From: a virus
Lineage: Duplodnaviria > Heunggongvirae > Uroviricota > Caudoviricetes
Strand: one strand, 5' to 3'
Length of the DNA stretch: 18,305 nucleotides
IMG/VR virus record: IMGVR_UViG_2529292906_000017
The notes below the pieces were generated by a model. It was not told the origin of the DNA. It saw only the letters and a program-made list of their open reading frames with translations, and searched no databases. The stretch's first letter is position 1, and every line of letters begins with the position of its first letter. Below are positions 13,329 through 15,348 of this stretch, piece by piece. The translations under genes and the position numbers were made by a program.

Positions 13329-14417
13329 TTACGCCAGTACGCCAATTGCCAGCGCGCGATCGATAAAACGAAATATCAGCTCCAGTTGGGAGCCATACTT
13401 ATCTTCAAATGCCACTGTATCCGTATGCAGCTCGTTGTGATGCTTTCTGCACAAAGGCAACACAAAGAGATCATGTGCTTTTGTTCCCATTCCGCCCTGC
13501 CCGTGACCAATCAGATGATGCGGATCGTCGGCTGGCATACCGCAGCAAGCACACGGCTGTGTCTTAACCCAACGTGTGTATTTCTCCTTAACCCAGCGGC
13601 GACGTTTAGGCAGCTTCATGAAAGATTCCGGAGACTCTGGATCAACGGTGATGCTTACCACCGTCTTTTCCTGTGGTGATTTTTGTTGCTGGTGGGCGTA
13701 AGGCAACGGTGCAAGATTTTTTGTGCGTTGTTTCAATATGCTGGTGGCGGTCTGCTCTCCCGGTACGATGTCGCTTTCGCGGTACACCGAGCAGATTTTT
13801 TCCGCTGGTAATCCCAGCGAACGACGCGATACAGCCTCAGGTAGTGCATCCACCACCTGATTGCAGACCGCCCACCAGGATAATTCAGCCAAAGATAATT
13901 CCCGCTCCTGCGTACCGCTTATTGCGTGACGGATGACGTCAATCACCCATGCTGTCAGATTTTGTTGAGCAAGCAGCTCCAGTGATTCCGATGTCTGGTC
14001 ACGCAGTTGGTTGTCGCAGTGCCAGCACAACACCATTGCGCCGGTACCATAACGGTGAATGACTGTTTCAGTGTGATGGTAATCGCCATTAGGCCACTGG
14101 CAGGATGTAACATGACGTAATAGCCAGTCGGACAATGCGCCAACGCCGCCAGCAGCACGAATCACCCGTTCGTTACTAAAAAACGGCAGCAATGTTTTGT
14201 CTTCCGCCAGCGGCTGGCGAACGGCAGGAACGACTCCGGATGGCAGATTACGCATGCTTTTTGGTTCCGGTTCCACCAGCACTCGAGGATTATGAAATAT
14301 CTGTATGGATTCACGGCCCGGCTTAAGGACCACCAGCCCAAGCTCAGGCACCAGAACAGGTCTAAGTAATACCCGCACGTTACCTCCAGATCCGTTGCTG
14401 GAAAGTGCGGGACGCAC
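13329..14417 (-). CDS. ydfU: DUF968-family prophage protein with Cys/His cluster
   Basis: 362-aa track ORF; C-terminal region TQPCACCGMPADDPHHLIGHGQGGMGTKAHDLFVLPLCRKHHNELH suggests a metal-binding (HNH-like) motif. True start uncertain (Met1 or Met55). Confidence 0.7.
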   Translation of the reverse strand: MRPALSSNGSGGNVRVLLRPVLVPELGLVVLKPGRESIQIFHNPRVLVEPEPKSMRNLPSGVVPAVRQPLAEDKTLLPFFSNERVIRAAGGVGALSDWLLRHVTSCQWPNGDYHHTETVIHRYGTGAMVLCWHCDNQLRDQTSESLELLAQQNLTAWVIDVIRHAISGTQERELSLAELSWWAVCNQVVDALPEAVSRRSLGLPAEKICSVYRESDIVPGEQTATSILKQRTKNLAPLPYAHQQQKSPQEKTVVSITVDPESPESFMKLPKRRRWVKEKYTRWVKTQPCACCGMPADDPHHLIGHGQGGMGTKAHDLFVLPLCRKHHNELHTDTVAFEDKYGSQLELIFRFIDRALAIGVLA

Positions 14418-14658
14418 GTGGTGGGCGTTCGGAATAAGGCAGCCTGACAGAGATTATCCAGTGCCGATAGTCGAGACTGAGAGCTTTCTTAACCTCGAAC
14501 CCGCGCCTGCGGTAAGAATGAATCAGCCATTCGGCCTGTTCTGCAGTGCATGGAGGGTGCTGGAACCATTCAGACTTGAATGCGTGAGAATACCGCCCGT
14601 GCGTGCAGGCAAGAACGGGCGAATTATCAGAATTGTAATATTTTGCGTTGCGTGCCAT
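14380..14658 (-). CDS. Hypothetical 92-aa protein overlapping the ydfU start, unassigned
   Basis: ATG preceded by GGAGAAAAC; MARNAKYYNSDNSPVLACTHGRYSHAFKSEWFQHPPCTAEQAEW... contains a C-x-H...H...C arrangement. Overlaps ydfU by 38 nt in a different frame. Confidence 0.4.
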   Translation of the reverse strand: MARNAKYYNSDNSPVLACTHGRYSHAFKSEWFQHPPCTAEQAEWLIHSYRRRGFEVKKALSLDYRHWIISVRLPYSERPPRASRTFQQRIWR

Positions 14659-14724
14659 CGGTTTTCTCCGGTGGCACGGTGTTACTCAGCGGGAGTTCAG
14701 CCCCGCGCAAGATTGTAGATGAGT

Positions 14725-15087: not shown

Positions 15088-15121
15088 CGTTGAAAATAAA
15101 AACAAAAACCCGCCGAAGCGG
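15088..15121 (-). terminator. Rho-independent terminator downstream of hokD
   Basis: Minus strand reads AACCCGC-TTCG-GCGGG followed by TTTTTGTTTTTATTTT; lies 70 nt past the hokD stop. Confidence 0.55.
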
Positions 15122-15192
15122 GTTAAGTGCGGGTGCGTTGAGGATGCCTGCCACATCAGAGGTGGCGAGGGATTTCTCCCCCGCCGGGTCTC

Positions 15193-15348
15193 TTACTCCT
15201 CAGGTTCGTAAGCTGTGAAGACAGCGACCTCCGTCTGGCCGGTTCGGATTCGTACCTCGCAGAGGTCTTTCCTCGTTACCAGTGCCGTCACTATGACGGT
15301 TAAACAGATGACGATCAGGGCGATTAACATCGCCTTTTGCTGCTTCAT
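15193..15348 (-). CDS. hokD: Hok-family type I toxin
   Basis: Reverse-complement translation MKQQKAMLIALIVICLTVIVTALVTRKDLCEVRIRTGQTEVAVFTAYEPEE (51 aa), GGAG upstream; not in the ORF track (under 60 aa). Confidence 0.85.
   Translation of the reverse strand: MKQQKAMLIALIVICLTVIVTALVTRKDLCEVRIRTGQTEVAVFTAYEPEE

Follow-up and report, generated by a model that had tools for sequence, protein, structure and literature searches.

A 92-codon open reading frame between rem and ydfU of the Qin prophage belongs to a conserved family of small basic proteins from phage nin regions

Gene order at the ydfU locus

The window, which is the whole stretch of 18,305 nucleotides of viral DNA that was analyzed (IMG/VR record IMGVR_UViG_2529292906_000017), matches the Qin prophage of Escherichia coli K-12. 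The part of its minus strand considered here carries hokD, an intrinsic terminator, rem, a 92-codon open reading frame (ORF), and ydfU (Table 1). YdfU belongs to the DUF968 family of His-Me/HNH nucleases (Pfam DUF968, E = 1.5e-76). The 461 nucleotides around the 92-codon ORF are 100% identical to those of E. coli K-12 and many other strains, and of 5426 complete E. coli genomes, 4314 (~80%) contain matching DNA, in up to seven copies each. Between the stop codon of hokD and the hokD terminator there is a weak match to isrK, an Hfq-binding sRNA from Rfam (15103..15184, minus strand; 25.1 bits, E = 0.005, under the gathering score).

An earlier note on this DNA drew attention to the ORF as a possible extra gene, since the K-12 gene order given there has only rem between ydfU and hokD. 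This order agrees with the K-12 reference annotation NC_000913.3, and the ATG-initiated frame of 92 codons is indeed present on the minus strand. The ORF is not rem itself. The gene rem is the neighboring 83-residue frame, as the note proposed, and PGAP gives that frame the corresponding name. The ribosome-binding site of the ORF, described as strong, has the canonical sequence GGAG; however, its strength is moderate and not exceptional.

Table 1. Features of the locus from hokD to ydfU and segments of the protein encoded by the 92-codon ORF.
Feature	Position	Strand	Remarks
hokD	15348..15193	-	
Intrinsic terminator between hokD and rem	15124..15107	-	
rem, 83 aa	14976..14725	-	PGAP "protein Rem"; upstream neighbor of the 92-codon ORF in K-12
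Spacer between rem and the 92-codon ORF			66 nt
TACAAT, possible -10 element	14712..14717	-	Promoter-like scan
Hairpin 1, predicted, GCGGGG-CUGAAC-UCCCGC	14689..14706	-	Leader fold
Hairpin 2, predicted, CGUGCCA (14678..14672) with UGGCACG (14657..14651)	14651..14678	-	Leader fold
Shine-Dalgarno GGAG of the 92-codon ORF	14666..14669	-	7 nt before ATG (14658..14656), read from the sequence
92-codon ORF, ATG to TAA	14658..14380	-	92 codons; TAA at 14382..14380
GGAGG Shine-Dalgarno of ydfU	14383..14387	-	Within the last two sense codons (TGG AGG) of the 92-codon ORF
Single-base spacer (c) between the 92-codon ORF and ydfU	14379		
ydfU, 349 aa, GTG start	13329..14378	-	Curated and PGAP annotation
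Variable N-terminal extension of the 92-residue protein	Residues 1-27		Predicted disordered (AlphaFold2)
Beta-alpha-beta-beta core of the 92-residue protein	Residues 28-75		
Basic tail of the 92-residue protein	Residues 76-92		Ends QQRIWR

In NC_000913.3, ydfU (1643255..1644304) and rem (1644651..1644902) are separated by a gap of 346 bp without a gene. The ORF occupies complement(1644306..1644584) of this gap, and its translation is identical to that from the window. By contrast, PGAP annotates the identical product in another assembly of K-12 MG1655 as "hypothetical protein" WP_012304870.1, and a PGAP coding sequence for the ORF is present in all the best-matching genomes listed. The exact 92-residue protein occurs in public collections as "hypothetical protein" or "Prophage protein" (UniRef), on at least 1000 contigs. 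The description of the ORF as unaccounted for is thus accurate for the curated reference, but PGAP, UniRef, and PHROGs include it as an uncharacterized protein. It is a real but ordinary gene that is already in databases and is omitted from the curated K-12 reference. A literature search on the 92-residue protein and on PHROG 1212, the family to which it belongs, retrieved no relevant paper or experiment. Evidence for translation of the ORF in K-12 was absent from the searchable texts and supplements on ribosome profiling, and the ribosome-profiling and gene-finding supplements searchable as text had no entry for its start coordinate or for ydfU.

Purifying selection on the encoded protein

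None of the 166 related loci sampled from IMG/VR and GenBank phages has a disrupted ORF. The 55 distinct nucleotide sequences of this long type encode proteins of 92 or 90 residues that differ by a two-codon indel, and all the length changes are in whole codons. The dN/dS ratio (pooled Nei-Gojobori) is 0.22 for the entire ORF, 0.55 for codons 1-27, and 0.11 for codons 28-92. In the latter 65 codons, which form the core, 20, 24, and 52 sites are variable in the first, second, and third codon positions, respectively. These substitution patterns show that the amino acid sequence encoded by the ORF is under purifying selection. Four of the other five reading frames have dN/dS of 2-3. The fifth has a dN/dS of 0.18; however, it contains about five stop codons per sequence, and it is an antisense frame that has its third codon positions in common with those of the ORF. 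The earlier note had recommended a conservation analysis of this kind, and the substitutions fit the frame of the ORF itself and not the ydfU frame alone.

A second long ORF of 137 codons, on the plus strand (14305..14718), is antisense to the 92-codon ORF and spans all of it. This antisense ORF is open in K-12; however, it is broken by one to three stop codons in 39 of the 55 distinct sequences and has a dN/dS of about 2. Therefore, it is not a gene.

Taken on its sequence conservation, the 92-codon ORF is almost certainly a genuine conserved protein-coding gene. NC_000913.3, the best-curated bacterial annotation, lacks this gene despite its clear purifying selection, and gene-by-gene resources built on that annotation presumably omit it as well. 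The "intergenic" stretch between ydfU and rem should not be handled as non-coding. There is no sign at this locus of a new kind of system.

Junction of the ORF with ydfU

The GTG start codon of ydfU sits one nucleotide past the TAA of the ORF, and the Shine-Dalgarno sequence of ydfU is four nucleotides from that start. The GGAGG, the TAA, the one-nucleotide spacing, and the GTG are kept in all 164 long-type loci in which the junction was compared. The entire GGAGGTAAcGTG junction is unchanged in 163 of them, and the remaining locus has t as the spacer base. The short-type relatives end likewise, in TGG followed by GGG, AGG, or GAG and a stop codon, and the downstream Shine-Dalgarno sequence is supplied in this manner in most lineages. 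Throughout the family, the stop codon of the ORF either lies 1-3 nucleotides before the start of the next gene or overlaps it by a few nucleotides.

The 38-nucleotide overlap with the 5′ end of ydfU that had been reported for the ORF does not hold. It needs a start of ydfU at the GTG at 14417, whereas the curated and PGAP annotations place the start at 14378. The 362-residue ydfU is only the longest-ORF version of the gene, counted from the first in-frame GTG. This upstream GTG is present in 55 of the 164 long-type loci and is replaced by GTC in 106, and in 99 loci ydfU lacks any other in-frame start. The GTG at 14415..14417 (minus strand) is specific to a K-12-like clade and derives from the codon for Ala86 of the ORF (cgt GCG). 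Relatives mostly have proline at codon 86 (cgt CCG), and therefore have no start codon there in the ydfU frame. A dual-coding overlapping pair of the ORF with ydfU was considered and rejected, because ydfU starts one nucleotide after the ORF stops and the start of the extended frame is limited to 55 of the 164 loci.

A stop and a start codon placed this close, together with a Shine-Dalgarno sequence inside the upstream ORF, have the geometry of a translationally coupled gene pair. Ribosomes that end translation of the 92-codon ORF would reinitiate on ydfU. Such reinitiation, and hence the joint production of the 92-residue protein and YdfU, is likely in view of the conserved arrangement of the junction.

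Leader of the ORF

Alignment of contexts that contain rem with those that lack it shows that their homology starts at TACAAT, about 55 nucleotides before the ATG of the ORF. The promoter-like scan assigned this hexamer to the arrangement TTTTCA-16-TACAAT with 9 of 12 matches, which is not above the expectation from shuffled sequences. The minimum-free-energy fold of the K-12 leader has a z-score of -3.2 relative to shuffled versions and contains two predicted hairpins, for which an Rfam search gave no match.

The loop CUGAAC of hairpin 1 is kept in related loci on at least five different stems (GCGGGG/UCCCGC, GCAGGG/CCCUGC, GCCAG/CUGGC, GUCAG/CUGAC, and AAAAUGG/CCAUUUU). Hairpin 1 is the sole such hairpin on the minus strand of the window that has CUGAAC as its entire loop. 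The constant loop on changing stems suggests that it may be a recognized RNA or DNA element. The hairpin lies about 30-50 nucleotides 5′ of the ORF, with equivalents in loci L025, L143, L145, L153, L160, L161, and others, and in locus L150 it occurs twice in tandem.

Hairpin 2, with seven base pairs, encloses the Shine-Dalgarno sequence and pairs the U and G of the start codon as well as codons 2-3. In such a fold of the K-12 leader, the ribosome-binding site and the AUG would both be paired. Among 22 distinct leaders, pairing holds in 99.4% of the cells, and two of the seven pairs have changed on both sides; for one of them this includes a synonymous GCA/GCG substitution in codon 2. Either GGAG or AGAG is kept at the position of the Shine-Dalgarno sequence in the related leaders. 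The commoner type of leader has an alternative hairpin, CUGCUG-CGC-CAGCAG, which shares the left arm of hairpin 2; therefore, two mutually exclusive folds are possible. The predicted folds, with their few independent changes, support the view that translation of the ORF truly begins at the ATG and suggest that it may be regulated. In K-12, where the prophage is cryptic, the ORF is probably poorly expressed.

Protein family and predicted structure

Residues 27-92 of the protein match the profile phrog_1212 over its full length (positions 1-66 of 66, E = 1.7e-35), and like the other members of PHROG 1212 the protein is encoded in temperate phages and prophages. Members of the family are encoded in 57 phage records and in hundreds of contigs from IMG/VR. 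When 1.84 billion cluster representatives were searched exhaustively with HMMER, only 60 proteins were retrieved, most of which are 66 residues long and align to residues 28-92, with the consensus MKxxWFxHxxCTxEQAxxLxxxYRxRGxxxxKxLSxDxxxWxVSVxLPxSxxPPRxSRxxQQRxW. Homologs are encoded by Gifsy-2 (STM1021.1n), mEp237 (mEp237_051), PY54 (ORF47), phiES15 (phiES15_017), and GF-2 (gp72), all of them members of PHROG 1212, and by phages of Klebsiella, Hafnia, Erwinia, and Citrobacter. The N-terminal extension of about 26 residues is limited to the E. coli type and corresponds to the fast-evolving codons 1-27.

The AlphaFold2 model has pLDDT above 90 for approximately residues 31-70. Its core consists of strands formed by residues 28-33, 56-60, and 67-75, and a helix of residues 39-52. 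The median pI of the family is 9.7, the median charge of the tail is +3.5, and the tail carries the motif PxR...QQ(R/K)xW. According to the model, the family core would be a compact 66-residue beta-alpha-beta-beta domain with a positively charged tail.

A Pfam scan of the ORF gave no family at E-values up to 1, and hence none of the named lambda/P22 Nin proteins (NinB, NinE, NinF, NinG, and NinH); a scan of NCBIfam gave no family match. There was no match to a PADLOC defense model at E-values up to 0.1, in a library that excludes anti-defense proteins. A profile search against PDB sequences returned only noise (E of 0.5 or higher), and structure searches with the predicted fold gave nothing informative. 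In six database proteins (P0096, P0097, P0112, P0115, P0117, and P0152), part of the ORF is joined to Q-antiterminator, DUF968, YbcO-like, or lysis sequence. All six are apparently chimeras that arose by frameshift or assembly and not natural fusions; for P0096, P0097, P0152, and also P0168, true domain fusion was considered and rejected in favor of such chimeras or of a repeat artifact.

Genomic neighborhood of the family

The neighborhoods were analyzed in IMG/VR and GenBank phage records, among which E. coli and Salmonella prophages dominate. The carriers are temperate phages and prophages of Enterobacterales, and every family member is located in a nin region, with the replication genes on one side and Q on the other. 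The 92-codon ORF belongs to the lambdoid nin region, which is the part of the early-right operon from the replication genes to the Q antiterminator.

Of 166 distinct long-type contexts, 160 have a DUF968/YdfU gene next, and the spacer is one nucleotide in every case. Upstream of the long type is rem in 83 of the 166 contexts, and otherwise hok, a gene for a 164-residue protein, or others. In loci without rem (L145, L140, L161, L114, and others), the module of the ORF and ydfU comes after hok and a terminator, after the gene for the 164-residue protein, or after unrelated sequence. The 99 contexts of the short type are followed by NinG (70), RusA and then DUF968 (15), YbcO/DUF1364 (3), DUF968 (1), or another gene (7), and are preceded by DUF1367 in 73 cases and by rem in none. 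In some phages the nuclease gene is separated from the family member by another gene: Erwinia phage 59 has a Dcm methylase in between, PY54 an ORF, and PhiR46_1 an exonuclease.

YdfU homologs are present in 173 phage records, as opposed to 57 for the ORF family. In front of YdfU of the SfV/mEp460 type there are a KilA-N-type regulator and RusA in place of the 92-codon ORF. This type (L353 and L354, from mEp460 and SfV) is the commonest YdfU clade in phages and is 58% identical to K-12 YdfU; the SfV gene is annotated 24 codons shorter than its mEp460 equivalent. Since most YdfU-type nucleases do not have such a neighbor, the 92-residue protein is optional, and the nuclease does not require it. 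This protein is neither an obligatory subunit nor an immunity protein or an antitoxin.

Possible role of the protein

The best overall explanation, with a probability of about 55%, is that the ORF is a nin-region gene for an optional small basic accessory protein that is co-translated with a junction nuclease. The next gene nearly always encodes a nuclease that processes DNA junctions, which is YdfU/DUF968 here and NinG/Rap, YbcO/DUF1364, or RusA elsewhere. YdfU, YbcO, and NinG belong to the His-Me finger nucleases and have been proposed to act on intermediates of recombination (PMC5714182). Because the family stands so steadily ahead of four families of junction nucleases, its protein is a candidate for an accessory factor in phage recombination. 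A tentative reading, held with well under even confidence, is that the protein is an optional accessory of the recombination or junction-processing module of the phage; it would then bind nucleic acid or the recombination machinery and not act as an enzyme. The adjacency to junction nucleases speaks less clearly for this role in that it may merely mirror the conserved gene order of the nin region. The partner nucleases have two or more unrelated folds, including His-Me finger and RusA, and this diversity speaks against a specific partnership between proteins.

The main alternative is a phage protein with a function unrelated to recombination, for example in host takeover, anti-defense, or regulation. 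The nuclease would then be adjacent through the conserved nin order, in which modules are swapped at fixed boundaries. The unrelated folds of the partner nucleases, the genes that intervene in Erwinia phage 59, PY54, and PhiR46_1, the numerous YdfU-type nucleases without a member of the family, and a predicted fold that gives no functional clue are all consistent with such a function. However, the coupling of stop and start codons and the embedded Shine-Dalgarno sequence have been kept across distant lineages with differing partner families, and DUF1367/NinB-like recombination genes are often upstream (73 of the 99 short-type contexts). The absence of a PADLOC defense match also counts against it, although the library excludes anti-defense proteins. 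On balance, an unrelated function is possible but doubtful.

Two narrower roles can be considered together as a minor possibility. The Qin-type protein may be a small RNA-binding autoregulator, or the family may be a junction- or nuclease-binding cofactor common to the four resolvase families. As an autoregulator, the protein would recognize the CUGAAC-loop hairpin, or open and close the helix that contains the Shine-Dalgarno sequence and AUG. It would thereby set the amount of coupled YdfU, and possibly of RusA and Q further downstream.

It is quite improbable that the ORF is a leader whose translation serves only to bring ribosomes to the GTG of ydfU, a weak initiation site, while the peptide itself has no function. 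The ydfU start is a GTG with its Shine-Dalgarno sequence four nucleotides away and inside the ORF, and the junction is kept in all 164 long-type loci apart from one spacer base in one of them, as such a leader would have it. However, a leader peptide without a function fits neither the purifying selection on its amino acids (core dN/dS of 0.11), nor the confidently predicted fold, nor the 35-50% identity retained across genera ahead of different downstream genes.

A cluster of cysteine and histidine residues had been noticed in the ORF, and the K-12 protein does contain two cysteines and five histidines (C18, H20, H25, H34, C37, H47, and H66). It could be compared with YnfU, another small protein of the Qin prophage, which was found by ribosome profiling and carries CPxC zinc knuckles (bioRxiv 10.1101/511675). 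Nevertheless, most of the residues are replaced in relatives and they form no conserved metal-binding motif. Three of the seven sit in the N-terminal extension that most family members lack: C18 is serine or missing in most relatives, and H20 and H25 belong to the part absent from 22-27 of the 36 aligned proteins. H34 is present in 26 of the 36 and C37 in 18, with methionine, leucine, valine, or isoleucine in the others, and H47 and H66 are not conserved, so that the 36 proteins do not share a set of three to four or more cysteine and histidine ligands. With the five positions other than H34 and C37 variable or in a lineage-specific extension, neither CxxC nor CPxC in the protein, and no zinc-finger match in Pfam, a small zinc-binding protein like YnfU is highly improbable.

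Records ON470583.1 and ON470619.1 name the product "toxin to Rem", and the K-12 ORF is 66 nucleotides downstream of rem. A toxin paired with Rem is extremely improbable, however: rem is upstream in only 83 of the 166 long-type and in none of the 99 short-type contexts and is thus not a constant neighbor, the record bearing the label has no rem annotated beside the ORF, the term was not found in the literature search, and there is no PADLOC or NCBIfam toxin match. It is hardly credible that the ORF is open merely by chance, in non-coding DNA or across an extended 5′ end of ydfU, with only the ydfU frame coding, because the omission from the curated K-12 annotation and the antisense ORF that is also open in K-12 are outweighed by every conservation test, by the presence of the extended ydfU frame in just 55 of 164 loci, and by the interruption of the antisense ORF in 39 of 55 distinct sequences.

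Comparison with known systems

The arrangement GGAGG-TAA-c-GTG, kept in 164 of 164 loci with t for c in one of them, and with analogous junctions in distant relatives, has the geometry of translationally coupled gene pairs; the ORF and ydfU differ from such pairs in that their coupling is a prediction from the sequence.

NinE and NinF of phage lambda are proteins of about 57-60 residues encoded directly before ninG in the same operon, and they have no known function. The family shares with them the small size and the position in the nin region directly before ninG; however, the 92-codon ORF is unrelated to them in sequence, with no match in Pfam. Erwinia phage 59 has both NinF and a member of PHROG 1212; therefore, the two are not equivalents.

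Like YnfU and the other small proteins recently added to Qin, the 92-residue protein is the product of a Qin gene missing from the earlier K-12 annotation. It differs from YnfU in the lack of conserved metal ligands, and its length places it outside screens limited to 50 codons.

The closest known relatives are the other members of PHROG 1212. The Gifsy-2 protein is 37% identical to the 92-residue protein over 65 residues, and the two have in common the position in the nin region and the tight junction with the next gene. Most members of PHROG 1212 are 66 residues long and are encoded directly after a DUF1367/NinB-like gene. By contrast, the Qin or E. coli type adds the N-terminal extension of about 26 residues and is preceded by a 5′ leader of its own, in which two hairpins are predicted.
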